A stretch of DNA of 64,000 nucleotides from sequence record NC_041871.1; one strand, given 5' to 3'. Source of the stretch: Escherichia phage Murica. The translations under genes were made by a program, and so were the position numbers. This document shows positions 4,640 to 61,015 of the stretch, piece after piece (positions within the stretch are counted from its first letter, which is position 1; each line of letters begins with the position of its first letter). Under the pieces are notes generated by a model. It worked only from the letters and a program-made list of their open reading frames with translations, did not search any database and was not told the origin of the DNA.

Positions 4640-5458
4640 TTGAGCAAGAAAGAGTCCAACGACAAATATTACACAAACCCTAAGTATGCAGAATATCTTG
4701 TTGGTAAAGTAAAAGACAAGTATGGGAATTGTGCATACGTTGAGCCTTCTGCTGGAAGGGGTTCTTTTTCAAAACTATTTTCAGAGATACTGTCGTACGA
4801 TCTAGTACCAGATCCTGAATTTGAAGGACCAACACAGTGCATTCAGGCAAACTTCTTGGAGGTGCATCCTAAGGCAGATGTCTTCATAGGTAACCCACCA
4901 TTTGGCAAGAATTCATCTTTAGCTTGCAAATTCTTTAACCATTGTGCATCATTGCTAGAGCTTGGCGGGGCTATAGCCTTCATCTTGCCACGGACATTTG
5001 AAAAAATATTTTTTGCAAACAAACTGGACATGTCTATGCACCTTGTCTACAGCGAAAGGTGCCCTAAGAACTCGTTTTTACTTAATGGCAAACCTTACGA
5101 CGTGCCATGTGTTTTCCAAATTTGGGAGAAAAAGGCGTGCAATAGGGATCCTGTAGAGATTGGAGAGAATAAGTTATTTTCTTTTAGCACACCGGATGAC
5201 TACGACTTCTGTGTAAGACGTGTTGGGTATAACGCTGGAAAAGTATTGGGTGATGATGATCCAAAATCTGAAGAATCTACGTATTTCATAAAATCTTTAG
5301 TTGACGGTGTTGACAGAGTGTTTGCTGAATGCTATTCTTCTTTTCAAGAAGAAGCAGGTAAGACTGCTGGAATGAAGAGTATAGGCAAGAAAGAACTACA
5401 ATACATTTTGGAGACCTGGTATGATCAAAAGCATAGACTTGACAAAAGAACTTACTGA
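4640..5458 (+). CDS. DNA N6-adenine methyltransferase (TaqI-like motif order)
   Basis: Motif I VEPSAGRGSF then motif IV FIGNPPFGK; TTG start 4 nt after GGAGG (track start 4610 lies inside the terminator). Confidence 0.6.
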   Translation: MSKKESNDKYYTNPKYAEYLVGKVKDKYGNCAYVEPSAGRGSFSKLFSEILSYDLVPDPEFEGPTQCIQANFLEVHPKADVFIGNPPFGKNSSLACKFFNHCASLLELGGAIAFILPRTFEKIFFANKLDMSMHLVYSERCPKNSFLLNGKPYDVPCVFQIWEKKACNRDPVEIGENKLFSFSTPDDYDFCVRRVGYNAGKVLGDDDPKSEESTYFIKSLVDGVDRVFAECYSSFQEEAGKTAGMKSIGKKELQYILETWYDQKHRLDKRTY

Positions 5459-5879
5459 TGCAAAAGCTTTTGGTGAGACAGCGGTACAAAGAGGCCAGGC
5501 GATGGGACTGGCACTACCTTTCGTCTTAAAAGAGCACTTTACAGATTTTCAACTTATCAAAGGTGATAAGGGAATGCTTATCCTGGAGCATAAGTTGAGT
5601 AAGAAACGCTACAAAGTTGTTTTTAATTCTAAAGCCCCAACAAAACTTGGATTCAGAACTTACAATCTCAACCCATCCTATACTAAGGGTGTTGGAAGGG
5701 TAGAACAACAGCATTTCAGCGCTAGAGCTTCTTTAGCTCCTTTGATGCTAAATTTCTCAGGGGTGGCTTTAGGATACCTTGATAAGAAAAGAGTTCTTCA
5801 TGTCCGTTTCACAGACTTTGTAACGCTTTTAGCTAACAACGAAGTTGATGAAAAGGGACGTGTAAAAACAAACTTCTAA
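5421..5879 (+). CDS. hypothetical protein
   Basis: ATG 5421 after GGAGACC; 152 codons. Confidence 0.45.
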   Translation: MIKSIDLTKELTDAKAFGETAVQRGQAMGLALPFVLKEHFTDFQLIKGDKGMLILEHKLSKKRYKVVFNSKAPTKLGFRTYNLNPSYTKGVGRVEQQHFSARASLAPLMLNFSGVALGYLDKKRVLHVRFTDFVTLLANNEVDEKGRVKTNF

Positions 5880-5906
5880 TAACGCATAGTATGATTGGAG
5901 ACTACA

Positions 5907-6098
5907 ATGACACTAAAGTTAACAATTCCAGACAGCTTTTCAGAAAACTTTATCCCAGAAATGATGGGTAAGATGCGATCATTGCTTGATCAGATTGAGG
6001 AAGCTGTTTGGGAAGACGATGCTGTAGTGGCTAACGAGCTAGTAGATAAGTGTAAAAGTATTATTGATGCAGTTGAAGAATACCACGGAGGTTTTTGA
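5907..6098 (+). CDS. hypothetical protein
   Basis: ATG 5907 six nt after GGAG. Confidence 0.4.
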   Translation: MTLKLTIPDSFSENFIPEMMGKMRSLLDQIEEAVWEDDAVVANELVDKCKSIIDAVEEYHGGF

Positions 6099-6712
6099 TG
6101 GATATTATTGTTCTTAACGCCCCACCCAGCAGTGGTAAGGATCACATTGCAGATCTCTTGTTGGAAGCTATTCCTAACTCACACCACCGTGAGGTTAAGG
6201 AGATGCTCTTCAGTGTGGCAATTAAGGCAGCTGGTGTAACTCCTCAACTCTGGAATGCACTTTATGACCGCCACTACAAAGAAGATCCTTGCCCTTTCTT
6301 AATGATAGACGGCAAGCATGTTTCTCCGCGAGAGTGGATGATCCATTGTAGTGAAAATCTGATTAAACCTATCTTTGGTGAAGATGCTTTCGGTAAGGCC
6401 GCAGTCACATCCTTGAAGAAAGATTTCCCTAAAGGTAAAGGGGTTGTTGTTTACTCCGATGGTGGATTCAAAGAGGAGCTGGCATGCCTTAGTGAGTACG
6501 CATACAGCACAGGTGGAGATCTGTTGTTGTTCCGTATTCACCGTGTAGGATATGACTGGGGAAATGATTCCAGAACCTATCTAAGTCTGGAAAAGAACGG
6601 AATAAAAGGGGTTGAGTTTGATGTTGTAAACCCTGAAGGTGCACCTTGGGAGTGTGCATCGGAGATTGTGTGCAAGTATATTGATGCTAAAGAGGCCCAA
6701 GAAGAATGTTAA
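6098..6712 (+). CDS. deoxynucleoside monophosphate kinase (T4 gp1-like)
   Basis: LNAPPSSGKDHIAD aligns with T4 dNMP kinase LSGVKRSGKDTTAD; GGAGG SD. Confidence 0.65.
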   Translation: MDIIVLNAPPSSGKDHIADLLLEAIPNSHHREVKEMLFSVAIKAAGVTPQLWNALYDRHYKEDPCPFLMIDGKHVSPREWMIHCSENLIKPIFGEDAFGKAAVTSLKKDFPKGKGVVVYSDGGFKEELACLSEYAYSTGGDLLLFRIHRVGYDWGNDSRTYLSLEKNGIKGVEFDVVNPEGAPWECASEIVCKYIDAKEAQEEC

Positions 6713-7299
6713 TCGGAATTGATGTAGATCTGACACTGGTAGATTCAGGAACAGCATGGTGGGAGTGGTTGGAGCGTTTGTATGGTCCAGCCAGTAAGAC
6801 AGTAGCTAAACCTTCTAATGGGCTAATGTATTACGATCTGTCAAAGTATTGGCCTGATCGTCCCAAAGAAAACATCATAGGACCTTTTGATTTCTGGAGT
6901 GATCCGTTCCTCTACGACTTCCTTAAGCCTGAAGAGGGGGCTATTGAGGTTATGAAAGATTTGGTGGCTCGTGGTCACAAGCTTGCATTTATCTCGGTAT
7001 GCAAGAAAGGTCACCTTGCATCTAAATCAAGGTTCTTAAAGCGTTGGACCAGTGATTTTATGGATCTGGACGATCACACCCAAGGCCACGGCTTCTACGC
7101 CACACATTTCAAAGGGAATGTGGCTGTAGATGTTATAATTGACGACAGGCATGAATACCTGAACCAATTCGCTTCACGACCTGAAGTTATTAAAATCCTA
7201 AAAGATACACCTTATGAGCAATTCGAGGAGTTAAAGGTCAGTGTTGACTATACCGCTAATAGCTGGTATAAAATAGGAAAATTTTTAGAAGGTATTTGA
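6706..7299 (+). CDS. HAD-superfamily phosphatase, putative deoxyribonucleotidase
   Basis: N-terminal DxDxT motif (GIDVDLTLVD); sits in nucleotide-salvage cluster. Confidence 0.5.
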   Translation: MLIGIDVDLTLVDSGTAWWEWLERLYGPASKTVAKPSNGLMYYDLSKYWPDRPKENIIGPFDFWSDPFLYDFLKPEEGAIEVMKDLVARGHKLAFISVCKKGHLASKSRFLKRWTSDFMDLDDHTQGHGFYATHFKGNVAVDVIIDDRHEYLNQFASRPEVIKILKDTPYEQFEELKVSVDYTANSWYKIGKFLEGI

Positions 7300-7300
7300 A

Positions 7301-7501
7301 ATGGGCAGATGTTCTAAAGGTGGCGATCCTGTAGTCAGATACGGTGACTGGCTAGAGGTGTATGATCTAGGAGGTAAGCTAGTGTATGCCTCCAGGATCA
7401 CCCAAGACATGTGCTCCGATATGTTCAACAGATACCTTGCATTTAAGGCCAACATAAACCCAGACGAAATTTCCAAAATTAAAACAAGGAGAGCTAAATA
7501 A
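7301..7501 (+). CDS. hypothetical protein
   Basis: 66-codon ORF with purine-rich SD. Confidence 0.4.
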   Translation: MGRCSKGGDPVVRYGDWLEVYDLGGKLVYASRITQDMCSDMFNRYLAFKANINPDEISKIKTRRAK

Positions 7502-8484
7502 TGCTAAAACTGTGCACTGCAAAGATCATTGCTGACAGCATTTCCGAGAAAGGTAAGCGCATCACCACTTTTGAGCTAGAGTATCCTCGAATTATTCACT
7601 CAGAGCTTATGACGCACCGAGTGTTCAGCCGAAACGCCATGTCTTCCCGTGCAGTGCCTGTCGGAAAGATGCTGCAACAGATTGTGGAGAATCCGGCAAT
7701 GCCAGTTCGCTTCGGTGTAAATAAGCGAGGAATGGAAGATGGTGGGGAACACGATCAAAAGATCCGTGTAGAGTACACTGATATGGAGCTAACTCCGGAA
7801 GAGTTTTGGAAAGAAGCTGCAAAAAACGCCGCTTGGCATGCAGAGAAGTTTGCCCTTGCTGGTTACCATAAGCAAGTATGTAACCGCTTAGTGGAGCCTT
7901 TTCAGCGCATGAAAACAGTTGTAACAAGCACCGAGTGGAATAATTTTTTCCACCTCCGTTGCTGGCACGATGCGGATCCTACGATTCAGATGTTAGCTAA
8001 TTGTATGTGGGAGGCTCTTGTGAATAGCACTCCTGAAATCCTTAAACCGGGTCAATGGCACACTCCATATGTAGAGCACGTTTATTTGGACGGGGAGTTT
8101 AACTACGCTGTACGTGACACAGAAGGAAAGCTCTGCATTCTCGATACTAAAGAAGCTCTGTCTATCAGTGCTAGTTGCTGTGCACAAGTATCTTATCGAA
8201 ATATTGACAGCACGTTTGAAAAGGCAGACAGTGTGGCTAAAAAATTGATTGGTGGGGATCGTATTCATGCAAGCCCTTACGAGCACCAGGCAACACCTAT
8301 GGATCACGATAACGCAATGGAACGTTTAAACTACTACCTGTCTTCATGTGAAATCACACAAGACATCAGTACTTGGCAGGAAGGTGTAACCCATCAAGAC
8401 CGTGATGGTAAATTCTGGTCTGCCAACTTTTGTGGGTGGGTTCAGCACAGACAACTGCTTAATAACCACTTCGTGAAAGGTTAA
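7501..8484 (+). CDS. thyX: flavin-dependent thymidylate synthase ThyX
   Basis: ELMTHRVFSRNAMSSR fits ThyX RHRxxSxxxxSxR signature; NNFFHLRCWHDAD; AAGGAG SD. Confidence 0.75.
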   Translation: MLKLCTAKIIADSISEKGKRITTFELEYPRIIHSELMTHRVFSRNAMSSRAVPVGKMLQQIVENPAMPVRFGVNKRGMEDGGEHDQKIRVEYTDMELTPEEFWKEAAKNAAWHAEKFALAGYHKQVCNRLVEPFQRMKTVVTSTEWNNFFHLRCWHDADPTIQMLANCMWEALVNSTPEILKPGQWHTPYVEHVYLDGEFNYAVRDTEGKLCILDTKEALSISASCCAQVSYRNIDSTFEKADSVAKKLIGGDRIHASPYEHQATPMDHDNAMERLNYYLSSCEITQDISTWQEGVTHQDRDGKFWSANFCGWVQHRQLLNNHFVKG

Positions 8485-8513
8485 TCCTATCACAGCGATA
8501 GGTAACTTTTGTG

Positions 8514-8566
8514 TTGACTAATAGTATTAGATAATCTATAATAATGGCTCACTTTGTTGGTGAGCC
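8514..8566 (+). promoter_or_regulatory. sigma70-like promoter with downstream stem-loop
   Basis: TTGACT (8514-8519), 17 nt, TATAAT (8537-8542); GGCTCAC-N7-GTGAGCC at 8546-8566. Confidence 0.55.
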
Positions 8567-8582
8567 AGAAATGGAGACAGAT

Positions 8583-9044
8583 ATGAGTAATGTTATGATT
8601 CCTAAAAAGACATTTATTTCAGTTACTTTGGATTTCCTATCTACCGTTCCCGGGTTTAACGTTCGCACACGAAACGGTCTCCGAGCTGCACTCTTTGCCG
8701 TAGGGTTTGATTTAAAAAGTATTGATGTTCTTCGTGGAAAAAACGTTCGATGCAAAAATAAGCCAACACATTATCGAAAGGCAGATGTATTTGCTGGTGT
8801 CATGCGTGCAGACTTTAGATACCCGCAAATGTATAACGGTGTAGATATTTTAGATGTGGATAAAGCACCTGGTGAGGCAATGCTTGTTCAAGATCTTCCG
8901 TATGATATTCCTGTAGAGGATCGTGTTAATGTAAGAAAGTATACAAAACAATCTGAAAAGGCTGAAGATATTCATATTGTTGATGAACCTTTCAATTTTG
9001 AAGATCTGCATCGCCTGGAAAAATTATTCGGTATTGAAAGCTAA
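8583..9044 (+). CDS. hypothetical protein
   Basis: ATG 8583 six nt after GGAGA; track start 8544 overlaps the -10 box. Confidence 0.5.
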   Translation: MSNVMIPKKTFISVTLDFLSTVPGFNVRTRNGLRAALFAVGFDLKSIDVLRGKNVRCKNKPTHYRKADVFAGVMRADFRYPQMYNGVDILDVDKAPGEAMLVQDLPYDIPVEDRVNVRKYTKQSEKAEDIHIVDEPFNFEDLHRLEKLFGIES

Positions 9045-9054
9045 GGTGGTGAAG

Positions 9055-9285
9055 ATGAGTCATAACTCCAAGTGGAAGGATCTTGGTTTTGCAAGTCGGT
9101 CAGAGTATGTTGGTTGGCTTTGGTTCAACGGCCTGACAAACGATATTAAAATGTATGATGATGTTTATTATGACGAGTATACAGGCAAAATTATAAATAT
9201 CTCTGTAGAAGAGGATACCTTTATCCAGCAAGATACTGATACCTGCCTTGATAAATACGTTGATGAAGTGGAGGAAGCAAATTGA
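9055..9285 (+). CDS. hypothetical acidic protein
   Basis: ATG 9055 after AAGGTGGTGA. Confidence 0.45.
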   Translation: MSHNSKWKDLGFASRSEYVGWLWFNGLTNDIKMYDDVYYDEYTGKIINISVEEDTFIQQDTDTCLDKYVDEVEEAN

Positions 9286-11597
9286 TCACCAAGGTAATTA
9301 AAAGCAACGGATGTGAAGTGGCATTCGATCCAGAACGTTTAAATAAGGCAGCTATTTTCGGTGACGACGGTAACGGCAATTGGTCACATATTGCACTGGA
9401 TGCATACAAACGACTGTATGATGGATGTACAACCAAAGAAGTTAACCAAGCTATCATAGACTCCTGTGTTAGCCGTAAAGACGAAGCACATTCCCGTATG
9501 GCTGGTCGTGTTCTTATTGGTCAGATTTATAAAGAGGCTTTTGGAGGGTTTACAAAGATCCCTTCCTTACCATCATTTTACAACGACATGGTTGAGAAAG
9601 GGTATTGGGAGGATATGGGATATAGCTTTACCGAGCTAAACACTTTAGACGCTGTTATTGACCACAGTAAAGATCTCGGTTATGGCTATGCAGTCCTTAA
9701 ACAGTTTCGCGACAAATACGGGATCAAGGATACTCTTAAAGACACCTTGTTTGAATCTCCCCAGATGATGTTTATGGGGATAGCAATGGCTGTCATGAAG
9801 AATATGCCGAAAGAACGTCGTATCAACGATGTTGTAAAATTATACACTTATCTGTCCGACTTAAAGATCAATGCCCCGACACCGTACTTAAACGGGCTGC
9901 GCACAGGTAAGACAGGGTATGCATCTTGTTGTGTAATAAAAGCTGACGATACAGCAAAATCTATTGGTGTGGCACGTGAAGTTGCGTACACAATGACGGT
10001 TAACCAAGCAGGTATCGGCTACTATTTATCATCAAGATCTGCAGGTGATGGTGTTCGCGGTAACACTATTAAACACATGGGTAAGATTCCATATTATCGA
10101 GGTATTGACGCTGGGGTTAAGGAGAACAGGCAACAATCACGTGGCGGTTCTGCAACAGTATCATTCCTTGCACTAGACCCGCAGATTGATGAGCTAATCC
10201 GCTTGAGAAACCCTATGACTGTTGCTTCAAAAAGAATCAACACCATGGACTACTCCATCGGTATTAATAGGTCGTTTATCAACCGTGTGGCTAAGAATTT
10301 AGATTGGATGCTTGTTTCTTATAAGCACGCTCCTCAACTGCATGAGGGTATCTTCACCATGTCTATGGAGGAGTTTGATGCAGAGGTTGATCGTATTGCT
10401 AAAGATGACAGTATCCCTAAAACATGGATCCGAGCCAGAGATCTTGCTGTTGAACTGATCACGCAGCGTACTGAGGTGGGAAGGCTGTATGTATACTGGA
10501 CAGATGAGATGAATAGACATACACCTTTTAAAGATGTGATCTATTCAAGTAACCTGTGTGCAGAAATAGCCCTCCCTACAAAAGGCTATTCAGATATGCG
10601 TAATATCTTCAAGTACGATGCTGATGATGGAGAGGTTGCATTGTGCTTCCTGTCATCTCTTGTAGCTGGAAGGGTTACTCCAGAGGAGTATGAGGATGTT
10701 GCATACTACACGGTGCTTATGATTGACAATGTTATGGAAATCATGACATATCCGTATGAAAATATGGAAAGCACAGTTAAAAAACGCAGATCCATCGGGG
10801 TTGGCCTTACCAATGTTGCACATTTTATTGCCAGCCACAAGGTTACTTACGGATCTCCTGAAAGTAAACAGCTTGTTCACGATCTTGCAGAACTTCACAG
10901 CTACAGCTTGCATAAGGCAAGTTTACGGTTGGCAAAAGAGCGTGGTGTCTGCGAGTGGATGCATAAAACAAAATATCCAGAAGGTTGGTTACCAATCGAC
11001 ACCTATAACAAAGAGGTCGATAGCGTGGTGAAAGATCCTTCTCTTAAACAGGATTGGGAAGGGTTACGTAAAGAAATTATTGAAAATGGTGGGCTACGTA
11101 ATAGCGTTCTTGAAGCATATATGCCTAATGAAAGCTCTTCGCTGGCAACAAACACCACTAACGGGGTTTATCCTGTCCGTGAGCACATTATCTTTAAAAA
11201 GTCGCCACAAGGGCAGGTGCTGTTTATCGTTCCTGACTATGATGAGTTGAAAGAGTATTACACCTCGGCTTGGGACGTTGATACTAACGACATGATCGAT
11301 ATGTATGCTGTGATTCAAAAATTTACAGGTCAGGCAATCAGCGCGGATTTATACATAGATTACACCAAGTTGAAAGATGGTAAAATTTCAATGAAGGAGC
11401 AGCTAGGGTACCTTATCCGTGCCACTAAATTCGGGATGAAGACATGGTATTATTTAAACTCCAGGGTTGGTGCTGGTGACTCATTGGCAGAGGAACTTCA
11501 TGCCAAGAAACAGGCTGAAGATGAAACCAGAAAGAACTACCCTTTGATTGCAGATAGTTCGGTTGAAGATCCGTATTGCGAAAGTTGTGCACTATAA
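9282..11597 (+). CDS. nrdA: ribonucleoside-diphosphate reductase alpha subunit
   Basis: ATP-cone N-terminus; NLCAEIALPTK...EVALCFLSS and C-terminal CESCAL align with E. coli NrdA; TTG start. Confidence 0.95.
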   Translation: MITKVIKSNGCEVAFDPERLNKAAIFGDDGNGNWSHIALDAYKRLYDGCTTKEVNQAIIDSCVSRKDEAHSRMAGRVLIGQIYKEAFGGFTKIPSLPSFYNDMVEKGYWEDMGYSFTELNTLDAVIDHSKDLGYGYAVLKQFRDKYGIKDTLKDTLFESPQMMFMGIAMAVMKNMPKERRINDVVKLYTYLSDLKINAPTPYLNGLRTGKTGYASCCVIKADDTAKSIGVAREVAYTMTVNQAGIGYYLSSRSAGDGVRGNTIKHMGKIPYYRGIDAGVKENRQQSRGGSATVSFLALDPQIDELIRLRNPMTVASKRINTMDYSIGINRSFINRVAKNLDWMLVSYKHAPQLHEGIFTMSMEEFDAEVDRIAKDDSIPKTWIRARDLAVELITQRTEVGRLYVYWTDEMNRHTPFKDVIYSSNLCAEIALPTKGYSDMRNIFKYDADDGEVALCFLSSLVAGRVTPEEYEDVAYYTVLMIDNVMEIMTYPYENMESTVKKRRSIGVGLTNVAHFIASHKVTYGSPESKQLVHDLAELHSYSLHKASLRLAKERGVCEWMHKTKYPEGWLPIDTYNKEVDSVVKDPSLKQDWEGLRKEIIENGGLRNSVLEAYMPNESSSLATNTTNGVYPVREHIIFKKSPQGQVLFIVPDYDELKEYYTSAWDVDTNDMIDMYAVIQKFTGQAISADLYIDYTKLKDGKISMKEQLGYLIRATKFGMKTWYYLNSRVGAGDSLAEELHAKKQAEDETRKNYPLIADSSVEDPYCESCAL

Positions 11598-11603
11598 TTT
11601 TAA

Positions 11604-11623
11604 AGGGGCTTCGGCCCCATTTT
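11604..11623 (+). terminator. nrdA-nrdB intergenic hairpin
   Basis: GGGGC-ttcg-GCCCC then ATTTT. Confidence 0.45.
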
Positions 11624-11636
11624 AGAGGTTAGAATA

Positions 11637-12725: not shown

Positions 12726-12728
12726 TAC

Positions 12729-13007
12729 ATGAGCTGTGAAAAATCTTTTTTCTTTATTATTTACGGTAAAGATAACTGCCCACATTGTGTAAGAGCAAAA
12801 GAATTTGCAGTCAGTAAAGGTCTGCCTTTTGTATATAAGACACTTGGCGAGGGTTACACAAAAGAAGAGCTTATTGAGAAGTGCAGTCCAATCGTACCCA
12901 GAACGTTGCCGCAGATCTTCTTAGAAAGCAATCTTGAAAGTGTCCATATAGGCGGTGCCGACGATTTCATCTCTTTTGTTAAGAATGGTTTTGGAGAGAA
13001 AAAGTGA
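12729..13007 (+). CDS. glutaredoxin (T4 NrdC-like)
   Basis: CPHC active site; LPQIF...HIGGADDF matches T4 glutaredoxin. Confidence 0.8.
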   Translation: MSCEKSFFFIIYGKDNCPHCVRAKEFAVSKGLPFVYKTLGEGYTKEELIEKCSPIVPRTLPQIFLESNLESVHIGGADDFISFVKNGFGEKK

Positions 13008-20226: not shown

Positions 20227-20460
20227 ATGAAAGTTAAATTTCTTACAGATTTAGGGTACCCTTCCTTGGTTGACTGTGTTGGTAAAATTGTGGAAGCAAA
20301 ACGGCTATCTGCAAACGAGAATGTTGTCCTGGTTAAAGGGAAGGATTTACTAGCTGCAGGTGCAGAGTCTGGCAGGATCTCTCCTGATTATATGTATTAC
20401 CTATCTTTAAGTAATCTGCCAGAGCGAGGCGGTAAAGGCCTTGAAGTTGTGGAGGAGTGA
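20227..20460 (+). CDS. small acidic protein, KGxDLxAAGA paralog family
   Basis: MKVKFL...VKGKDLLAAGA...GLEVVEE; AGGAGG SD. Confidence 0.55.
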   Translation: MKVKFLTDLGYPSLVDCVGKIVEAKRLSANENVVLVKGKDLLAAGAESGRISPDYMYYLSLSNLPERGGKGLEVVEE

Positions 20461-31025: not shown

Positions 31026-32349
31026 TAAGTTCTTCTCTTTTCTTTTACCGAGTAATTCGGGTTTTCTGTTCTCTTCGGTTTGAAGGGGTATGGAGATACA
31101 CCTGAGTGAACATGGTGAACAACCGAACATTTGGCTATGGCATTAGCATGGCGAAGCGGACGGGTGACGAAAGAGGGGCCGGAGGACACCAGTCACTGCC
31201 ATATGATATATGGGTGATAACCTGAAGAGTCTGAATAAGTGTTTAAGTACCAGTCAGAGGAAAAGGTGAATGGTAGCCGAAGGGGGAGGGGGGTTTCTTG
31301 TATCTTTAATTTGTATATTATGTATACACTCGTAAACCAATCTCATCTGAATCTGTTTACCACACAAAGTAGATAGGGACAAATATCACCTATTAAACTT
31401 GAATTATTTATAGAAAATACCACAACACCACTTAAGTCTTTGATTTTACACACAAATCCTACAGATATTCAACCTCTATATTTAACATATTCATAACATA
31501 TTCCATACTCTACCTGTCTGATCAATTTACCCAACCACATCCTCCATATTTTCCCTGTCTGTACCACCCCTGCCCCGCCGGGAGTCCCGTCATATCTGGC
31601 TTTCCAGCAAATATCACACCCACAAATATCATTGCCTGAAGAGGGTTTCATCCCATAGTACATGCCTTACCTGAAGAGCGCTTCATACACCACGTAAATT
31701 TTTTAATTTACCCCCCCTCCCCGCCGCCGGAGTGGTCGGCTTTTCCCACACAGGCCTGAAGAGTCAGCCAGAAATATCTGAACAGGTCCAGTTATACCAC
31801 GATTTTGACCTGACCGACAGGAGTGCTGCCAGGCGGACGGAATGGGAATACTTCTCATTCTTATAATAATTCTCAAATATCGAGGCAGTGAGGCAAATTA
31901 ATAGGTGAGGCCGTTCACACAGTGGCACAACATTTGCAATCTATTTTGTGAGGGTGAATGAGAATACCTATCATTGTGAGAACTGTTATCATTACGGGCA
32001 ATTTAACATAATACCCATTATGCGCACCACTGGCGATCCATACAGGGATTGATAACATGAGTTACAGTTTACGCATATAACAATCATATTTCTTACTATT
32101 TGTGTGGGATATAGTTAGCAGCCGATAGATTAGATATTGACCTGTGGACTTCCAACCGTCTAGACGTCTAAACGCCCACACAACAAGGATTATACATACA
32201 TTACTGAATGTAAACAGGGCCGCAAAAATGCTACCATACCAGATTGTAAATTTTTCATGCAGCACTTGACAAAGAGGAGAAAAACTTGTCTGACACAATA
32301 TGACATACTGGGCACATTAAACACACTTTAGACTTAATTGACATGCCTG

Positions 32350-52206: not shown

Positions 52207-52430
52207 AGGTCCTCTTCAACAACTACAAACTTGGCAAGCAAAGTGGTTCCGTAGATATGATACTCACCGTTTGCCAGGTGAGAGATATACCAGGCAACCC
52301 CTTCCTCGTCTTTAATCATTTTGTTTGCACGAGCTTTATCGTAATAAACCTCGTAGGTCTTTCCTTCTTTAAAGAAGGACAGGTCTGTCATCTTTTCTTC
52401 TACAAAAGTAGCTTTAACCAAAGTTGTCAT
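52203..52430 (-). CDS. hypothetical protein
   Basis: 75 codons, ATGA coupling. Confidence 0.45.
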   Translation of the reverse strand: MTTLVKATFVEEKMTDLSFFKEGKTYEVYYDKARANKMIKDEEGVAWYISHLANGEYHIYGTTLLAKFVVVEEDL

Positions 52431-52711: not shown

Positions 52712-52760
52712 AAAAATCCCCTCTTTGCTCAACAGCACCTCCCTGTGCTGATAGTTTACA

Positions 52761-55538
52761 TTAGTGACAATCACCCCAGTTCCGACCACACAAGTATTCA
52801 CCTGTGATCTGGAATGGAACGCCCATCATTTTAGAAGCTTGCCAGAAGCAATGCACCACCATTTCACCCACAGGGCTCCAGATAAGTTCAAGCTTTCCGT
52901 CATCGTTCAGGATAGGATCGTACACCGTGTTTCCGTCTCTGTCAACCACTTCGTTTCCGTTTTCATCCTTGCGTGCCTTTTTGTACTTATGACCGTCAAA
53001 CACATGAAGTTTGGCCTCCTGCTCTGCCTTAAATGCTTCCAATTCTTCAATTGTGTCGAAGGTGTACACAGTCTTATACTTAGGCGTGTCAGGGACCTGA
53101 AGTTGGTACTCATCATGGTAATAAATAATACGACGAACACCTTCATCGTACCACCCACGCTTCACCATTTGGTGGTGCATGAGTATCCCAACTAAGTCAC
53201 ACAACGATGCACCACCATTTTGTTGGTATGCATTAAGTAAAGAGTGTTTAGATCGGGTCCAGATAGCATGACCATCAAAAGAGTAGATAAACTTCTTACC
53301 CGTTGCTTCCCAGAATTTCTCCAGATCCTCTTTACGCCCTTTAAGACCAGGGTTGGCATCCCAAAGCGCATCGATTACCCTTTGCCCCAACTCTGGGGAG
53401 ATATCCAGCATGTCTGCAACTTTATCTTTTTGTGCCCCATACATAACCCCGTACGTGATAGGTTTACCGTCGTTACGAGACACCTCTCTACCTGCTACTT
53501 TCGTATATGCCTCAGCATTGTTTTGGTGGGCATCCCCGTTACTTACAACATCGTAATACAGGCCGTTGTCGAACTCAAAGGCACCCCAAGCCCCGATAAG
53601 CTGCTCTAAGTTGGACCCGTCAATACCGATCTCAAAGTATCCTGGAGGAACACCCCACAGACTGCGCATCTCTTTACCCATAACCACTTTAGGAGATGGT
53701 TTAGGCATGTTTGCACAAATACTGTGTTTCTGTCGGGAAGTGTTTGTTAATCCAGAACTTTTAGCAGGAAGCTTATGGTCAATCTTCAAACGTGGGTGAT
53801 TAAGAAGACCAGTATCAACCTTATCCTCCTTGATTGGATCAAGGACCGATCTGCGGTTTCGCAATGATAACCACAAGACAATATCTTTAGCCATCTCTCC
53901 GTTCAATTTTTCAAGATTTGGGCATAGGTGTCCAAACGTATCTTTCAGCTGCGGAGAAGTAATAAGTGCTCTGGCTTTTCTACGTATTTTCCCGAATACT
54001 TCCTTTTTAATCCTTTCGGAGTTAGGAAAGCTTCGGAACTTGTGCACGGTTGTCTGAAACTTAGCATCAGTTTTGTTCCAGAAGTTGATAATCAGGTCAC
54101 AATACTCTGACTCTAAAAGCTCGTCCATGTATGCATATACTCGTGCATCAACATCTGCATCAGGTAGAGCTTTCTTCTTGCTGTCTTTAGTTACATCCTT
54201 AGTTCTCCACATTGTCGGAAGCCAACCAGCACTGATCAGGTATCGCTTAATGTCGTCCTGATTGCTGATTTTCATAGGTATCTTGCAGTCCGGCATTCGC
54301 TTCTGCTGTAGATCACTTATTGCCTGATCCATCAGCTCTTTAGGTAAAGGTTGTGGTGTGGAAGTGCCCTTAATATAGCCTCTCAAGAAATCAGCCATCT
54401 TATCAGGGTCTTTGCAGCCCATCTCTTCACACCATTTTATCCCCATCTTGCTGACATCTCCTGTGGAGGTAAATGCTCGCTTAGGCGGGGCTTTGAACTC
54501 CAAAGCACTCATGTCCACAGGATAGCCAAGCTTATCTTTTAACCATTTCCAACCATTGTTGGAGATTGTCCCATCTTGGTTAAACGGCTTTTCAGGGAAC
54601 TTGGGCCGCTGAGACATTGACAGCTCTTTTAAAGGAAGTTGAGGTTCAACACGATCAGCGATTTCTTTCATCCACGCATCGCAACGGTCACGTAAAGCAA
54701 TAGCTCCATCTATGTCGAAGTATACACCCTGACGGGCCTGCAGCTCCATCAGGAAGTGCTGCAGCATGCCTCGGCGTAATGCGTTCTTCCAGGTGATTTT
54801 CTTGAACCCTTTCGGCTTCTCTTTGGCTGGATCGTACATAAAGTTCTGCATGTCAGATTTGCCGTAGAATACACCTTTTGATTCCGCTACCAGCTCTTTC
54901 CAGAGCAGCTCCTGGATGATAACGTCCTCGAATACACGATCCACATACTTCCACAACGGAAGATCGCGCCAGTCATCAATTTGAACTTTCTGGTTACCAA
55001 GGGCGTAGCCCCATGCCATAAGGCCGTGAGGACCAACAGGCTGCATTTTCTTAGTAACCGGGTTGAATACAGAGTCCGGACAACCTTTTGGTAAAGGGCG
55101 ATCAGGCCACAAGATTCTGCTCATCGCCAACGTATCAAACAGGTTAACCTGGTGGTCGTTGATAGTCCCCATGCATTTAGGATCACGGAACATATCAAAA
55201 TGAATACCGGATAATCTTTCCATCAGCATAAAGTCATAACTGTAGCAGTTATGGCAGTTCAAAGCTGTTGGTGACCAGTCGGAATTGCCTGTAAGCCAAC
55301 CTTCCAACTCCGAAAAATCTGCTATGCGAACTTCAAAATCTTTATGAAGAGTTTTCTTTGCCAGAATAAAGTTCTTAGCCTTCTCTATATCCTCTTCGGA
55401 GTAGTGTGTGCGGTCATTTAGAGGAAGGAACAGCATAAAACGGTTCTTATTCAGCTCTTTAAACAGGCCGCAGTGATAATAAAGATCTGGATCTTCCAGC
55501 AAACCGGATGACTCAAAGTCGAACGACCACATGCTCAT
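52761..55538 (-). CDS. family A DNA polymerase with 3'-5' exonuclease domain
   Basis: Exo I FDFESSGL; pol motif A EIGIDGSNLEQL, motif B RNDGKPITYGVMYG, motif C YYHDEYQ; AAGGAGA SD. Confidence 0.85.
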   Translation of the reverse strand: MSMWSFDFESSGLLEDPDLYYHCGLFKELNKNRFMLFLPLNDRTHYSEEDIEKAKNFILAKKTLHKDFEVRIADFSELEGWLTGNSDWSPTALNCHNCYSYDFMLMERLSGIHFDMFRDPKCMGTINDHQVNLFDTLAMSRILWPDRPLPKGCPDSVFNPVTKKMQPVGPHGLMAWGYALGNQKVQIDDWRDLPLWKYVDRVFEDVIIQELLWKELVAESKGVFYGKSDMQNFMYDPAKEKPKGFKKITWKNALRRGMLQHFLMELQARQGVYFDIDGAIALRDRCDAWMKEIADRVEPQLPLKELSMSQRPKFPEKPFNQDGTISNNGWKWLKDKLGYPVDMSALEFKAPPKRAFTSTGDVSKMGIKWCEEMGCKDPDKMADFLRGYIKGTSTPQPLPKELMDQAISDLQQKRMPDCKIPMKISNQDDIKRYLISAGWLPTMWRTKDVTKDSKKKALPDADVDARVYAYMDELLESEYCDLIINFWNKTDAKFQTTVHKFRSFPNSERIKKEVFGKIRRKARALITSPQLKDTFGHLCPNLEKLNGEMAKDIVLWLSLRNRRSVLDPIKEDKVDTGLLNHPRLKIDHKLPAKSSGLTNTSRQKHSICANMPKPSPKVVMGKEMRSLWGVPPGYFEIGIDGSNLEQLIGAWGAFEFDNGLYYDVVSNGDAHQNNAEAYTKVAGREVSRNDGKPITYGVMYGAQKDKVADMLDISPELGQRVIDALWDANPGLKGRKEDLEKFWEATGKKFIYSFDGHAIWTRSKHSLLNAYQQNGGASLCDLVGILMHHQMVKRGWYDEGVRRIIYYHDEYQLQVPDTPKYKTVYTFDTIEELEAFKAEQEAKLHVFDGHKYKKARKDENGNEVVDRDGNTVYDPILNDDGKLELIWSPVGEMVVHCFWQASKMMGVPFQITGEYLCGRNWGDCH

Positions 55539-55596
55539 ATACAGTTCTCCTTAAAGGGGAGGCGGTTGTACTACCCCTCCCACTCTTTGTTAAACA

Positions 55597-57675
55597 TTAA
55601 AAAGGTGTTTCATCATCCTCAAAACCAGGGACCGGATCAGAGGATGGATCATCGTATTGGAGGTCTTCCTGCGTGTCAATAGGCTTGACAGTGGGTGTTA
55701 CAACCTTATCAGCCACAACCTTGCCCATAGGTGTTTCTACAACTGCATGCTCCTGATCCTCAAACATAGCCTGAGGTCTCCAAACAACCTCCCCACCTTC
55801 TCCGTCTGTAAACATCTGCATTTCTTTGTCCCAGTACCAATTACTGGCATCATGGAACTTACCTGTATGCGGATCCATAACTAAAGTGTCAGCAATACCT
55901 AAAGTTTTTGCTGGACGGTTTTTAAGACCTACCAGACGGACACGTCCACGAGAACGATCCACCATTTCTTCGGCCTCGACACCTATGACTACCCAACTCA
56001 ACTGTTCAAGCCCAGCCGATCCTCGCAAATTCTCTTTTCGCACAGGATACCAGAAAGGTAATGGGTTACCATCCTTGTCCTTAGGGGGCACAATCTCTGT
56101 ACGTTTGAGGTGAGCGATCACCAAGATAAACACGTTAAACTGCTTACAAAACGCAGCCAGTTGGGTCATAGCCATGTCCAGTTCTTTTCGCTCATCCTTA
56201 ACATTAAGCCCTGAAATTACCATGGACAGGTGATCCAGCACAATATAACGACAATGGTACAGGCAAACCATTTGCTTAAGCTTGGTAATCAACTCGTCCA
56301 CTGGAATAGACCCGAAATGTTTGAACACTTTGATTTTTCCAGCTTTTGCCCATGATTGGTGAATCTCTGCGTGTTCTTGATCAGTTAAAAACTGGCTAGG
56401 ATCTTCAACAAACTCTTTAACATCAAACCCTAACTGGTTTGCATACAAGGAGTTAATTGCTTCCTCTGGGTCCTCCTCAAGATGAATCATGCATAGACGA
56501 TCATCCTCTTCATAGTCATCGGCCTTCGGGCATGTCGGGTCCATTAGGTATCTTGCAATACAGTGTTCCAGTTTTTTAGCCACGGTTGTTTTACCGCCGC
56601 CTGATGGACCTGTAAGCATTACAAGTGTCCCTTTGTGCAAGCCTTTTAGCATTTTTTGCAGTTTTGGGAACTCTGCACTGATATCTACCCCGTTGGAAGT
56701 CTTTTTCCGCAAAGACTCGATAGAGAAGTCTTCTAAATCCGACACAGCATCAGGCACATATTTAACAGGGTGCCGGAACATGTTGACAATATCTTCCAGC
56801 TTTTTAGCCTTCAGCATGTCTCGGATATCTTTTACACCGTCAGGGTCATTTACTTCACCAGGGTATTCTACGTGGTAAACGTTATCAGCCATCAAAAATG
56901 CTGCGATATTGTGCGTGGCCTCAACACCTTTAATGACGTGTTTTTGCTTCTCTACCTCGTTAGCTGCATCGTTATCCATTGCCAGCACAACTGTTCCATA
57001 GCTACGGATAAACTTCTCATTGTTTGCAAAAGTATCTACTGCGTTTGCACATCCACAGTTAATTCCAACAAAAGGCAGGCAGGGTTTTCCTGCCAGATCA
57101 CCACCGTTGATAACTGCGTCGATCCCGTCCTGGACCTCTTTAGCCCACTGCTTCACCTTTGCCGGGGCTTTAGCGTTGGTGAGAATCCCTTTTACTTGTA
57201 TCTGATATGCAGCCTGCCATGCTGCAATAACATCACCTTCTCCCTCACAAACGTTAATCTGCTTACGGTTGTTGGAAGATGCACACAGCTTTTGACCAAA
57301 CATCTGGGAGTTGGCCTTTACGATGCCAACAACGGAGAAATGGCCCCTTTGCTCTTTAGGAATAGTCCAGTCACGCTTTTTGAAACCAGACAGATTTCCG
57401 TAGCGGTCGTAATATGGGAAATATGTTGCAGTGACTGTCACACCGTCTTCTTGGGACAATGCTGATCGCACACCAAAATATTGTGCAGCCATCAGACCGA
57501 TATTTTGTTGTGGGACAGGGACAATTTTAGTATTTTCTAAAACAGTCTCTACAGTTTCAACTTCTTTTTCATCACGATAGTCTCGTTTCACACTTCCCCC
57601 ACTTTTATACTTAGTTGCTTTCGGGTTTGGCTCACCGAAACGGTTGTATGCAGATGCCATAAATTTACTTCCCAT
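55597..57675 (-). CDS. primase-helicase (TOPRIM + DnaB/gp4-type helicase)
   Basis: TOPRIM VCEGEGDVIAAW and LAMDNDAANE; Walker A LTGPSGGGKTT; Walker B YIVLDHLSM; C-terminal acidic tail ending EDDETPF; no N-terminal zinc finger. Confidence 0.8.
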   Translation of the reverse strand: MGSKFMASAYNRFGEPNPKATKYKSGGSVKRDYRDEKEVETVETVLENTKIVPVPQQNIGLMAAQYFGVRSALSQEDGVTVTATYFPYYDRYGNLSGFKKRDWTIPKEQRGHFSVVGIVKANSQMFGQKLCASSNNRKQINVCEGEGDVIAAWQAAYQIQVKGILTNAKAPAKVKQWAKEVQDGIDAVINGGDLAGKPCLPFVGINCGCANAVDTFANNEKFIRSYGTVVLAMDNDAANEVEKQKHVIKGVEATHNIAAFLMADNVYHVEYPGEVNDPDGVKDIRDMLKAKKLEDIVNMFRHPVKYVPDAVSDLEDFSIESLRKKTSNGVDISAEFPKLQKMLKGLHKGTLVMLTGPSGGGKTTVAKKLEHCIARYLMDPTCPKADDYEEDDRLCMIHLEEDPEEAINSLYANQLGFDVKEFVEDPSQFLTDQEHAEIHQSWAKAGKIKVFKHFGSIPVDELITKLKQMVCLYHCRYIVLDHLSMVISGLNVKDERKELDMAMTQLAAFCKQFNVFILVIAHLKRTEIVPPKDKDGNPLPFWYPVRKENLRGSAGLEQLSWVVIGVEAEEMVDRSRGRVRLVGLKNRPAKTLGIADTLVMDPHTGKFHDASNWYWDKEMQMFTDGEGGEVVWRPQAMFEDQEHAVVETPMGKVVADKVVTPTVKPIDTQEDLQYDDPSSDPVPGFEDDETPF

Positions 57676-58429
57676 TAATTCTGCTCCTTACTACAGGCTC
57701 GTTTGCTAAGAATACGGCTTTTGCCCAGCCACGTGGTGTGAGGCTTCGGATCATCTTCGTTCTTGCACTCTTTCCACCCAGCTTGGCGTGTTGCATGGAA
57801 TACCCGCTAACCGCGTCAACTATTTGCTGGACAGGTTTTGTGGCCGGGATTATAAATCCATTACCTATCCAGCCGCAAGTTATTTTTGGATAGGCATCAC
57901 GTGGAGCTATAAATTCAGGAAACCAGGGGTTTACATCATCCTCCGGTAAATACCCGCCATAGTCAGAAGGATGAAAACGGTAATCAGGTTTGCGCCACAG
58001 TGTGGACATAACACCAACAGGATTCTCTACATGCCACGGGCAATCGTAAATCTCTCCCAGCTCTTCCGCAACCCGAGCATCCTTTACAGCATTAATTTGG
58101 ATCAAAGGATCCTTAGCCAGCTTTTTCTTAAAATGTGCAGCACCTGATACCGCTAAATGCGTGCACGGAGGAAATGCAAGAACAAAGTCCGGAGCTGGGT
58201 ACATGCAGAAAGTTTCCTGAGGGAACCATGGATCAATCCAATAATCTACATAGTGAATATTTGGATGATCGGTGATCACCTCTGCATAACTGCCGTGGTC
58301 AGCACCTTCTGCGTTAAAGCACAGGCACAGATATCCAGCTTTTGCCCAGTCAATGACTGCACCGCCAGATCCGTCAAATAGACTCCACACAACACCTTTG
58401 TGGTAGTGTTCTTTATAGATAAATTTCAA
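57665..58429 (-). CDS. putative DNA (cytosine-5)-methyltransferase
   Basis: Motif I LFDGSGG, motif IV FPPCTHLAVSG, motif VI HVENPVG; TTG start 7 nt after GGAGA (track GTG 58459 lies in terminator). Confidence 0.6.
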   Translation of the reverse strand: MKFIYKEHYHKGVVWSLFDGSGGAVIDWAKAGYLCLCFNAEGADHGSYAEVITDHPNIHYVDYWIDPWFPQETFCMYPAPDFVLAFPPCTHLAVSGAAHFKKKLAKDPLIQINAVKDARVAEELGEIYDCPWHVENPVGVMSTLWRKPDYRFHPSDYGGYLPEDDVNPWFPEFIAPRDAYPKITCGWIGNGFIIPATKPVQQIVDAVSGYSMQHAKLGGKSARTKMIRSLTPRGWAKAVFLANEPVVRSRINGK

Positions 58430-58445
58430 TTTGCTGTCTCCTAAT

Positions 58446-58474
58446 GCAAAAAGCCCCACCCTTTCGGGCAGGGC
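58446..58474 (-). terminator. intrinsic terminator (repeated sequence, copy 2)
   Basis: GCCCCACCCTTTCGGGCAGGGC, one base different from 48319-48340; U-tract on - strand. Confidence 0.5.
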
Positions 58475-58480
58475 CTAGTG

Positions 58481-58963
58481 TTAAACCCGGATACCTATTG
58501 TATACTCGGTGGATACCAATGTCAAATCTAAATTTAAAATTTCTTGCATCTCATAGTATGCATCCAGGGTGAGATACATTTCCCCATCCTTTTCTACATA
58601 CTTGTCAAGGTGTTTGAGGCACTTTGGATAACTATTAAGGGCAGCCTTTAGGCACTCAAACTCTGTGCTGTTGATGAATCCTTCCATCTTGGCTACCCGT
58701 TCTGGGGTAACGATAGCACTGTAGTGAGATTTAGCTTCCTGAATGCAATGGGTCCAAGCATCAACTTTCTCTTCGAAAAGTCCGAAGAACTTCTTTTTGG
58801 TGAGCTTCAGATTCTTTAAGTGCTTAAGCACTCGGTTGCCGATCACAGATACATCACGAAACTTAAAGATCACTTTGTCAATATCCTCGCGGCCTATTTT
58901 TACAAAGCAAGCCTCGCACATTTCAGGAGAGGCATAACCTACTTTCCACATAAAATCTGACAT
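58481..58963 (-). CDS. hypothetical protein
   Basis: 160 codons. Confidence 0.5.
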   Translation of the reverse strand: MSDFMWKVGYASPEMCEACFVKIGREDIDKVIFKFRDVSVIGNRVLKHLKNLKLTKKKFFGLFEEKVDAWTHCIQEAKSHYSAIVTPERVAKMEGFINSTEFECLKAALNSYPKCLKHLDKYVEKDGEMYLTLDAYYEMQEILNLDLTLVSTEYTIGIRV

Positions 58964-58975
58964 AACACTCTCTCC

Positions 58976-59371
58976 TTATTCCTGAAAAGCAACGATATCA
59001 TATGCACTTACCAATGATTCCGGTGAAGAATGACTCCAGTCCAGGTTATCAGAGTATCCAGCGTGCTGTGCACCGCTACGTAGTTTGTATTTTACCCACT
59101 TACCTGGTGCAGGGTTTTCACCACCTTCCCATGCTTCCCAGTCTTCTGACAGGCCGTCCTGAGAGCAGTCATCCACTTCACTGATAATCTTAGGGTTTGG
59201 CACCAAGATCCCTGCAGGCTCCTCCTTCCGGATAAGTGTCCACACAGCGTAGGTGTCTGAGCAGGCGCATGATAGCAAAGTATATCCACTATTTAGAACT
59301 TCTGCAAGCTCTTGTTCAGCATCTTCCAATTTGGTTAAGTGGTATTGGATAATCTTCACACCTGTAATCAT
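58976..59371 (-). CDS. hypothetical protein
   Basis: 131 codons. Confidence 0.5.
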   Translation of the reverse strand: MITGVKIIQYHLTKLEDAEQELAEVLNSGYTLLSCACSDTYAVWTLIRKEEPAGILVPNPKIISEVDDCSQDGLSEDWEAWEGGENPAPGKWVKYKLRSGAQHAGYSDNLDWSHSSPESLVSAYDIVAFQE

Positions 59372-59715
59372 CAGAAACCTCCCACTTCTTCAGCAAATGC
59401 AGCTGCTGTCGTCGCTGCATCCAGATAGGACTCTAGTTCACGGGCTGCACGTTTGTAAATTGAGTGGCGCATATCGTTTGGCAATTGGTGGAAGTCCACC
59501 TCTTCACCGTTGTGGTAAACATGCACATCGGTAATTTGTCTAAATCCGTAATAGTCAACATCAGAATCACGGCACTCTGGGTCTGGCAACTGGACAACTG
59601 CCTGAGCTTCCACAGTGAACATATCGTCAAGTTCGAAATCGATTTCAAAAGTGTATGGTTTATAACATTTCATCATTTGATTGTACTCTTTATTGATCAG
59701 ACTTATCTTTCGCAA
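59371..59715 (-). CDS. hypothetical protein
   Basis: 114 codons. Confidence 0.5.
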   Translation of the reverse strand: MRKISLINKEYNQMMKCYKPYTFEIDFELDDMFTVEAQAVVQLPDPECRDSDVDYYGFRQITDVHVYHNGEEVDFHQLPNDMRHSIYKRAARELESYLDAATTAAAFAEEVGGF

Positions 59716-61015
59716 TTAAGGTCGGGGCAAGTTTGTAATAACGGAAGCCACCACCACCTTGCCAGTTTACAGACTTAGAAATACCACCTTGATCTTCACC
59801 ATCGATCACTTTTTCCAAGCGCGGAATAATATGGGTATGACAATGATCACCTAGCTCGATTGAGATCCAACGTCTTTTCATCTTGTGAGCTACAGCAGCA
59901 GTAGTTCCCGAACCACCGAATGAATCCAATACCAAATCGCCTTCTCGCGTACACATTTCGAAAATTCGCTTCAAAAGCGCTTCTGGTTTTTTCCCATTTT
60001 TGAAACTAACGCCGCCTTCATTTGCTATTCCATTCCAACTAATGTCTGTCCAAACATCAGTTATTAGTTCCGCAGGTTGCATATCACCGTCAATTTCCAA
60101 AAGCCTGTTGGAGTAAAAGACCATTTGCCTACCATTTACGATATAAAATCCTTCAACATCTTCATTTGGATGTACATAAACCTTATCCCTATCTTTCTTT
60201 GACTTCTCGATAGTTTCTTTTCTCTTTATTTTAGCACCACCGCCGATTGCAACAGATTGAAATACACGTTCTGCATTATCAATTGCGAATTGTGCTAATT
60301 CATCATCGAATGTATCAGGCAGTTTTTTCTTGGCCTCTTTTGCATCTTTATAGCCATTGGCCTTTGCAAACGCATCGGCAATACCGCACCACGTCCAATT
60401 TTTATAATGGTCATCCGGGTTTAATAGGTATTTGTTATATCCTGTATCATACCCTTTAGGTATATAGATTTTGTTAAGCGGTTTCTGGGTGCGATCTTTT
60501 GCATATACAAGCAAAAAGTTTGCTGTGGAGAAAACTGTGGCTCCTGTTGCCTTAAATCCCGAAGGGGAATTTGTGGTCATCGATATGGTATTTAACTGAT
60601 TTGCACGACCAAAAATCTCGTCCATCAAAACTTTTAAATACGCCATTTCGCAATCATCTAAGTGAACGAATATTACCCCATCATCACTTAGAAGATTACG
60701 AATTATTTCTAACCTATCCCTCATTAAGCCCAGCCAAATGGAATGCTCAAGGCTATCATCGTAGTGCTCAAAAGCCCTTCCAGTATTGAATGGTGGGTCT
60801 ATGTAAACACACTTCACTTTGCCTGCATACTCTTGCTCTAGCGCCTTCAATGCTAATAAGTTATCTCCAAAAATCAGTTTATTATCAAAAATATCGTTTT
60901 CAGTCACTTTCTGGCTGTGGTAAGACTTGCTAGAATCTTCTAACAAAATGTGCGGCTCTAACTTTTTGCGCTCGTTTTTACCTATCCAGGTTAGTTCTAA
61001 TTTGGTTTTACTCAT
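59690..61015 (-). CDS. DNA N4/N6 methyltransferase, type III Mod-like
   Basis: YIDPPFNTG (motif IV) precedes FGGSGTT (motif I); N-terminal ELTWIGK; AAGGAGAG SD. Confidence 0.75.
   Translation of the reverse strand: MSKTKLELTWIGKNERKKLEPHILLEDSSKSYHSQKVTENDIFDNKLIFGDNLLALKALEQEYAGKVKCVYIDPPFNTGRAFEHYDDSLEHSIWLGLMRDRLEIIRNLLSDDGVIFVHLDDCEMAYLKVLMDEIFGRANQLNTISMTTNSPSGFKATGATVFSTANFLLVYAKDRTQKPLNKIYIPKGYDTGYNKYLLNPDDHYKNWTWCGIADAFAKANGYKDAKEAKKKLPDTFDDELAQFAIDNAERVFQSVAIGGGAKIKRKETIEKSKKDRDKVYVHPNEDVEGFYIVNGRQMVFYSNRLLEIDGDMQPAELITDVWTDISWNGIANEGGVSFKNGKKPEALLKRIFEMCTREGDLVLDSFGGSGTTAAVAHKMKRRWISIELGDHCHTHIIPRLEKVIDGEDQGGISKSVNWQGGGGFRYYKLAPTLIAKDKSDQ

Follow-up and report, generated by a model that had tools for sequence, protein, structure and literature searches.

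Four Orphan Methyltransferase Genes

The subject of this analysis is a set of four DNA methyltransferase (MTase) genes in Escherichia phage Murica (NC_041871.1), an rV5-like myovirus of the genus Vequintavirus. All four lie in the window, by which we mean the whole 64-kb stretch of DNA that was analyzed. The window shares ∼98% nucleotide identity with Vequintavirus genomes, including BASEL phages, and across positions 4000−20000 and 52000−64000 it matches over 100 coliphage genomes at 97.5−99% identity, phages of the BASEL collection among them. The first ∼30 kb have their genes on the + strand, and the genes beyond lie on the − strand. Gene 1 (4640−5458, + strand) encodes a 272-amino-acid protein that resembles gamma-class type II N6-adenine MTases; gene 2 (18704−19237, + strand) encodes a 177-amino-acid NPPY-type N6-adenine MTase assigned to Gm6ATC, where m6A is N6-methyladenine; gene 3 (57665−58429, − strand) encodes a short, 254-amino-acid Dcm-like C5-cytosine MTase; and gene 4 (59690−61015, − strand) encodes a 441-amino-acid beta-class MTase that resembles the Mod subunit of type III systems. 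Each of the four is an orphan.

A six-frame motif scan of the window found (D/N/S)PP(Y/F) or PCx signatures in long open reading frames (ORFs) only in genes 1−4, and the family matches of the four predicted proteins are far above chance. A preliminary description of this DNA had placed four MTases here, and all four ORFs are indeed present, each with MTase motifs and family or profile matches. It had also counted three chemistries. We find two, N6-adenine (three enzymes) and C5-cytosine (one enzyme), distributed over four architectures, with the type III Mod-like enzyme belonging to the N6-adenine type; a third chemistry would be present only if gene 4 proved to be an N4-cytosine enzyme. The orphan status that had been proposed is borne out: family searches of the neighboring ORFs found no restriction endonuclease (REase)-like or Res-like neighbor of genes 1−4, and no restriction nuclease or Res is annotated anywhere in the near-identical genome of Bas51 (phage WalterGehring, MZ501111.1).

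The MTases annotated in Bas51 are exactly the four of the window, with identities of 267/272 for gene 1 (bas51_0200), 175/177 for gene 2 (bas51_0176), 251/254 for gene 3 (bas51_0074), and 437/441 for gene 4 (bas51_0070). In the BASEL GenBank records, three of the orthologs are labeled "putative N6 adenine methyltransferase" and one "Dcm-like C5 cytosine methyltransferase". When records with an ortholog of at least 90% identity are counted, gene 1 is represented in ∼119, gene 2 in ∼117, gene 3 in ∼115, and gene 4 in ∼86, so that the Mod-like gene 4 is the least universal of the four and is found in roughly three of every four related genomes. Remoter homologs of genes 1−3 are found in related large enterobacterial myoviruses, and for one relative, the Certrevirus phage CB7, ClaI digestion has been reported as showing Dam methylation. 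The four-MTase set is thus a correct observation that was already known, from the annotation of near-identical phages and, for gene 2 and the gene 3 family, from experiment.

Gene 2 and the Methylation of Bas51 DNA

The protein encoded by gene 2 carries the motifs LEPCRNSASG and ITNPPYS, with NPPY at residues 84−87, and matches phrog_799, "DNA methyltransferase", at 1e-66. Its matches to the phage Dam family PF05869 (19.3 bits vs a cutoff of 28.1), to TIGR01712 (16.2 bits vs a cutoff of 97), and to Pfam EcoRI_methylase are all sub-threshold, neither Pfam nor NCBIfam places it in the D12/Dam family (alpha class), and a single-sequence search of the PDB returned nothing meaningful. The order of its motifs, I and then IV at a distance of ∼40 residues, differs from the alpha arrangement. 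The earlier label "Dam-like" is therefore apt for the target, which is GATC, but not for descent: gene 2 does not share homology with the alpha-class Dam of E. coli, and the curated Dam models stay below their thresholds.

The activity of this protein has been addressed by experiment in Bas51. In a 2025 PLoS Biology study, the Bas51 mutants that escaped the retrons Asa1 and Squ1 were all mutated in an "N6 adenine methyltransferase", and the engineered substitutions D69G, D79G, and T83P in this enzyme abolished defense (PMC12548924). The three mutants are viable and plate normally on the control host, nanopore calling of m6A (called 6mA there) shows that the GATC motif is gone in T83P, and the enzyme is toxic upon expression in E. 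coli (PMC12548924). Among the four MTases of Bas51, D69, D79, and T83 are found together in the 177-amino-acid protein alone, where T83 directly precedes NPPY, and all three residues are conserved in gene 2. The window protein differs from bas51_0176 by two substitutions, Q32P and V174A, both outside the motifs, and the two genes share the same neighborhood, with a ClpP-like protease gene upstream. On the strength of this identity at 175 of 177 positions, we assign gene 2 as a GATC-specific N6-adenine MTase, the activity itself being that determined by experiment on the Bas51 ortholog.

Gene 2 is located in a nucleotide-metabolism block, and the ClpP-like protease gene (17603−18652) lies directly upstream of it. 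Bas51 is mentioned in a 2026 preprint on the activation of CBASS by phage proteases, to which this protease gene may have a link. Downstream, the ORF at 20457−20990 has the position of the BASEL "putative glycosidase". A premature stop in the Bas51 glycosidase, R87*, occurred in half of the retron escapers and relieved the defense exerted by Asa1, not that by Squ1 (PMC12548924).

Methylation calling of virion DNA, which the preliminary description had proposed as a check, has thus already been published for Bas51, for m6A, and gives values of ∼100% at GATC and ∼99% at GTAC. The published counts of m6A in the wild type are 1405 at GATC, 509 at GTAC, and 576 at other positions; in T83P, they are 35, 511, and 349, respectively (PMC12548924 supplement). 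By our own count, the Bas51 genome contains 703 GATC and 258 GTAC sites, i.e., 1406 and 516 adenines, and dividing the published wild-type counts by these numbers gives an occupancy of 99.9% for GATC and 98.6% for GTAC, on both strands. E. coli K-12 is not known to encode a methyltransferase for GTAC. Since GTAC methylation also survives in T83P, a second phage enzyme must write it. Our literature searches found nothing on RsaI digestion of rV5-like DNA or on methylation in the rV5 genome paper.

Gene 1 as a Candidate GTAC Methyltransferase

Gene 1 starts with a TTG codon at 4640, preceded by a GGAGG ribosome-binding site at 4631−4635. Its product presents DKYYT, EPSAGRGSF (motif I), and GNPPFG (motif IV) in the order X-I-IV, which is the order of type II gamma-class enzymes, and its match to PADLOC MTase_II is a full-length one (2.7e-34, residues 8−254). 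The family comprises at least 782 proteins, in which EPSxGxGxF, GNPPFG, and VPC..Q.W are invariant. Searches of Pfam and NCBIfam, permissive thresholds included, gave no significant family, and a single-sequence search of the PDB gave nothing meaningful. An AlphaFold2 (AF2) model with a predicted local distance difference test score (pLDDT) of 92 retrieved M.BseCI, CamA, M.TaqI, and HsdM in Foldseek, mixed with tRNA methyltransferases. PF26055 is listed for some homologs of gene 1, and we build no claim on it.

The genomic context of the cellular homologs is informative. At 24 of 80 cellular loci, a conserved gene for a ∼210-amino-acid protein lies ∼22 bp downstream of the gene 1 homolog on the same strand. 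This neighbor has a PADLOC REase_II match (6e-9) and no Pfam, NCBIfam, or PDB match, whether searched by sequence or by profile. Its members (at loci L008, L012, L030, and 21 others; e.g., L030:4800−5417) share invariant HG..FE, D42, P54..K58, and QRRxQCS elements, where P54..K58 reads PTSIKS in most members, and they probably represent an uncharacterized family of type II restriction endonucleases. The recurrence of an REase_II-like neighbor argues that the gene 1 family is a family of restriction−modification (RM) methyltransferases of which the phage copy is an orphan; the ORF immediately downstream of gene 1 (5421−5879) has no REase match.

We lean, by a modest degree, toward gene 1 rather than gene 4 as the writer of m6A at GTAC. 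A known precedent is M.HpyAXII, a characterized gamma-class type II MTase of Helicobacter pylori that forms m6A at GTAC (PMC2588503). Compared by architecture only, both are small gamma-class proteins whose NPP(Y/F) motifs lie almost at the same residue (N87 in M.HpyAXII vs N85 in gene 1), and the M.HpyAXII product, GTm6AC, is the modification seen in Bas51 DNA. The two differ in that M.HpyAXII has a PabI-like nuclease partner whereas gene 1 is an orphan, and the cellular relatives of gene 1 differ from M.HpyAXII as well, being paired with the different, ∼210-amino-acid REase_II-like protein. Avoidance of the palindrome provided no discriminating signal, with GTAC at an observed/expected ratio of 0.72 at the RM loci vs 0.77 at the non-RM loci of gene 1 homologs.

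The possibility that genes 1 and 2 are paralogs was also considered and dropped: although both match phrog_799, a direct BLASTP comparison aligned the two proteins only marginally, around NPPF/NPPY (E 0.027).

Gene 3 as a Candidate CCWGG Methyltransferase

The protein encoded by gene 3 contains the C5-MTase motifs LFDGSGG (motif I), FPPC(89)T (motif IV), and E(135)NPVG (motif VI), and C89, E135, N136, and P137 are invariant across 25 homologs. The stretch between motifs VI and IX is highly conserved in the family and is likely to be the target-recognition part. Gene 3 matches phrog_757 at 1.2e-86; it has 3526 homologs, and 1551 phage records contain homologs. PF00145 does not match gene 3 even at E ≤ 10, and no significant NCBIfam family was found. 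Two homologs with 54−55% identity, P0053 and P0069, reach 24.7 and 25.4 bits against PF00145 (cutoff 22), so that the link of gene 3 to this family is a transitive one.

Structure prediction agrees with the motifs. The AF2 model of gene 3 has a pLDDT of 89 and a predicted template modeling (TM) score of 0.89, and the top 50 Foldseek matches in the PDB are all C5 DNA MTases, either DNMT3A/3B or the CP-933R prophage MTase, with a probability of 1.00, E ∼1e-6, and TM ∼0.5. The gene 3 profile, searched against PDB sequences, gave nothing beyond marginal matches to DNMT3B and M.HaeIII (E ∼0.35−0.6). The single-sequence PDB search returned nothing of significance; its match to ODF3B/CIMAP1B (E 0.005) reflects low-complexity Pro/Gly sequence and was rejected as spurious.

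A characterized relative exists for this protein. The 236-amino-acid Dcm of the Drexlerviridae phage K42 produces 5-methylcytosine (5mC) on the multicopy single-stranded DNA (msDNA) of retron Ec86, as detected by liquid chromatography−mass spectrometry; its activity needs a CCWGG site and depends on the catalytic residues C82, E128, K175, and K176 (10.1101/2023.08.16.553469). Gene 3 is 53% identical over its full length to a 236-amino-acid Hanrivervirus protein whose C82, E128, K175, and K176 are exactly the positions mutated in K42 Dcm; the equivalents in the window are C89, E135, K182, and I183. The K42/KarlJaspers type of short Dcm, which is the trigger of retron Ec86/Eco1, thus resembles gene 3 in phrog_757 membership, in length class (236 vs 254 amino acids), in its DNMT3-like fold, and in the aligned catalytic Cys (C82/C89), Glu (E128/E135), and first Lys (K175/K182). 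It differs in the second Lys, K176, which is Ile183 in gene 3, and gene 3 is in addition extended at its N-terminus and carries a small insertion around residues 200−206. The genomic context differs too, since gene 3 sits in the replication module, where its end overlaps the start of a primase/helicase gene by 11 nucleotides. By analogy with this homolog, gene 3 probably makes 5mC, with CCWGG as its likely site.

Gene 4, a Mod-like Protein without Res

Gene 4 shows the beta order of motifs, with IDPPFNTG toward the N-terminus and DSFGGSGTT toward the C-terminus. The protein has the sequence of a Mod-type beta-class MTase, with matches to Pfam PF01555 (5.9e-42) and PADLOC MTase_III (4.8e-205, over profile positions 2−444 of 575). 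Its best PDB sequence matches are the type III Mod 6k0w (1.3e-28) and EcoP15I Mod 4zcf (1.5e-24). Gene 4 resembles the type III Mod proteins (EcoP15I Mod 4zcf, H. pylori Mod 6k0w, and the Mod of phages P1/P7) in its N-terminal ELTWxGK region and in the placement of the DPPF motif IV ahead of the FxGSGT motif I, but it is ∼130−200 residues shorter and has no Res gene beside it.

The preliminary description had called gene 4 Mod-like and without a Res partner, and this reading stands. None of the neighboring ORFs matches an REase or Res, and the small flanking ORFs match nothing; the helicase encoded upstream is a PIF1/RecD-like superfamily 1 protein, unlike Res, which combines a superfamily 2 helicase with a nuclease. 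As no Res neighbor was found, and none is annotated in Bas51, gene 4 is Mod-like and does not belong to a type III system. A split or truncated Mod was considered and rejected, as the ORFs downstream match neither the C-terminal part of Mod nor a nuclease. From its DPPF motif and its homology to Mod, gene 4 is predicted to be an active N6-adenine enzyme; an N4-cytosine activity is less likely. Like gene 3, it lies in the replication module, between the helicase, primase/helicase, and polymerase genes.

A further proposal, which we offer tentatively and hold to be less likely than the assignment of GTAC to gene 1, joins two parts. Gene 1, together with the ∼210-amino-acid neighbor of its cellular relatives, would represent an uncharacterized type II RM family, possibly specific for GTAC, and the Res-less gene 4 would act outside conventional m6A site protection, as an N4-cytosine writer, as a conditionally active enzyme, or at a rare asymmetric site among the ∼350 "other" calls.

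Many GenBank records of the MG0656xx series that are named "Campylobacter phage", with Campylobacter jejuni as the host, are 98−100% identical to this E. coli Vequintavirus, as matched by positions 4000−20000 and 52000−64000, and one record of this type encodes a Mod-like protein 100% identical to gene 4. The Campylobacter host labels are probably wrong or the result of contamination.

Role of the Methyltransferases

We consider it likely that the four stand-alone MTases modify the phage's own replicating DNA at short specific sites and thereby give site-specific protection. Gene 2 would place m6A at essentially every GATC on both strands, as found by experiment in a phage whose proteins are 98−99% identical, and a second, independent phage activity would do so at essentially every GTAC, as found by experiment in Bas51; its writer would be gene 1 or, otherwise, the Mod-like gene 4. 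Gene 3 would add 5mC at CCWGG, as its characterized homolog suggests, and gene 4 would be an active adenine-type writer. The likely benefit would be progeny DNA that is immune to cognate type II nucleases of the DpnII/MboI (GATC), RsaI/HpyAXII/PabI (GTAC), and EcoRII (CCWGG) classes. A cost is documented, in that retron defense systems sense the MTases; both the gene 2 ortholog and the gene 3 family trigger abortive infection by retrons. An influence on the expression of host genes, which the preliminary description had entertained, is unsupported, and what is documented instead is that the GATC enzyme is toxic to E. coli and triggers retrons.

A number of points weigh against this interpretation. 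The methylation evidence comes from Bas51, with window proteins 98−99% identical, and not from this isolate, and the Bas51 study called 6mA alone, not 5mC or N4-methylcytosine. The site CCWGG for gene 3 is an extrapolation over 47% sequence divergence, and architecture is the basis for choosing gene 1 over gene 4 as the GTAC writer. Three adenine-type enzymes face two reported m6A motifs, GATC and GTAC, and one enzyme is therefore unaccounted for. In the window, GTAC is under-represented, with an observed/expected ratio of 0.61 (vs 1.06 for GATC), and this scarcity suggests selection against the site despite methylation. Finally, systems of the EcoRI, EcoRV, type I, and type III classes meet with high sensitivity in these phages (PMC8594841).

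This sensitivity bears most directly on the idea, raised in the preliminary description, that self-methylation serves as anti-restriction, which in its broad form would have the four enzymes jointly mask the genome from host restriction in general. The number of orphan enzymes, the near-complete methylation at two 4-bp motifs (∼960 sites per genome), and conservation at ≥95% identity in more than 100 related genomes are all compatible with such a role, and self-methylation as such is upheld, at GATC and GTAC, by the Bas51 data. Broad protection, however, is contradicted for the systems tested in the BASEL study, in which the Vequintavirinae were "exceptionally susceptible" to RM systems, apparently without effective protection (PMC8594841), and marks at GATC, GTAC, and CCWGG cannot mask other sites such as GAATTC and GATATC, of which the window contains 7 and 25, respectively. 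For non-cognate systems, restriction of the wild type as strong as that expected of MTase-deletion mutants has largely been seen already. We regard a general masking of the genome as improbable. Given the RM sensitivity of the subfamily, protection would be confined to the cognate sites, and the adaptive value of the methylation is conjectural.

Two further explanations are, in our estimate, slightly less probable still. The methylation could serve chiefly the DNA metabolism of the phage, as a packaging mark, in replication control, or by shielding the unmethylated GATC sites of rapidly replicating DNA from MutH-type nicking by the host, with GATC and CCWGG methylation duplicating host Dam/Dcm marks that the host supplies too slowly. 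The position of genes 3 and 4 inside the replication module and of gene 2 in the nucleotide-metabolism block would suit this explanation, as would the T83P mutant, in which 35 of 1406 GATC adenines are methylated, so that host Dam evidently lagged. The viability of T83P, D69G, and D79G counts against an essential role and leaves room for one in fitness; the normal plating of these MTase-defective mutants on the control host speaks against the explanation as well. The distribution of sites does so too: GATC, GTAC, and CCWGG are near-Poisson in the window and show no clustering at the putative origin region (32300−33400). Alternatively, gene 1 could be an RNA N6-adenine MTase of the METTL5/Trm type, with GTAC written by the Mod-like gene 4, an arrangement that we hold to be just as unlikely. 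The gene 1 family profile does weakly match METTL5 and archaeal Ta1320 in the PDB (E 2.8e-4 to 8e-3), TrmN and Trm5 are among the top Foldseek matches, some JGI homologs bear the name "predicted RNA methylase", and neither Pfam nor NCBIfam gives a match. Against this stand the full-length PADLOC MTase_II match, the REase_II-like neighbor in 24 of the 80 cellular loci, and the dominance of DNA enzymes (M.BseCI, CamA, M.TaqI, and HsdM) among the fold matches. In addition, a type III Mod classically methylates one strand of an asymmetric site, whereas GTAC is palindromic and is methylated on both strands. Site-specific methylation of the phage's own DNA by four DNA enzymes remains the reading that we prefer.

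Other Features of the Window

The region at 32300−33400 is AT-rich (GC content ∼0.37) and ORF-poor, and it coincides with the switch of gene orientation and of GC skew. It contains an exact 20-nucleotide direct repeat (32481 and 32743), a perfect 18-nucleotide inverted repeat (32577−32594 / 32712−32729), and several GCAACTAT-type repeats. No Rfam match and no tRNA were found in it, and the equivalent stretch of Bas51 (93.9−96.4 kb) is unannotated. This region may serve as a replication origin or as a divergent early promoter. Nine CCWGG sites fall within 34000−35000, compared with a mean of ∼2 per kb; the other motifs are near-Poisson.

The genes for DNA polymerase (52761−55538) and anaerobic ribonucleotide reductase (13004−15127) are unbroken in the window. 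In Bas51 and some other relatives, the same two genes are split by homing-endonuclease insertions and appear as "joined" features.

Implications

The window provides a well-documented example of a common, therapeutic-type group of coliphages that carries four orphan MTases. At least two of the four mark the genome in full at 4-bp sites, and the phage nevertheless stays highly sensitive to restriction. The same MTases double as liabilities, in that they are sensed by retron defense systems.

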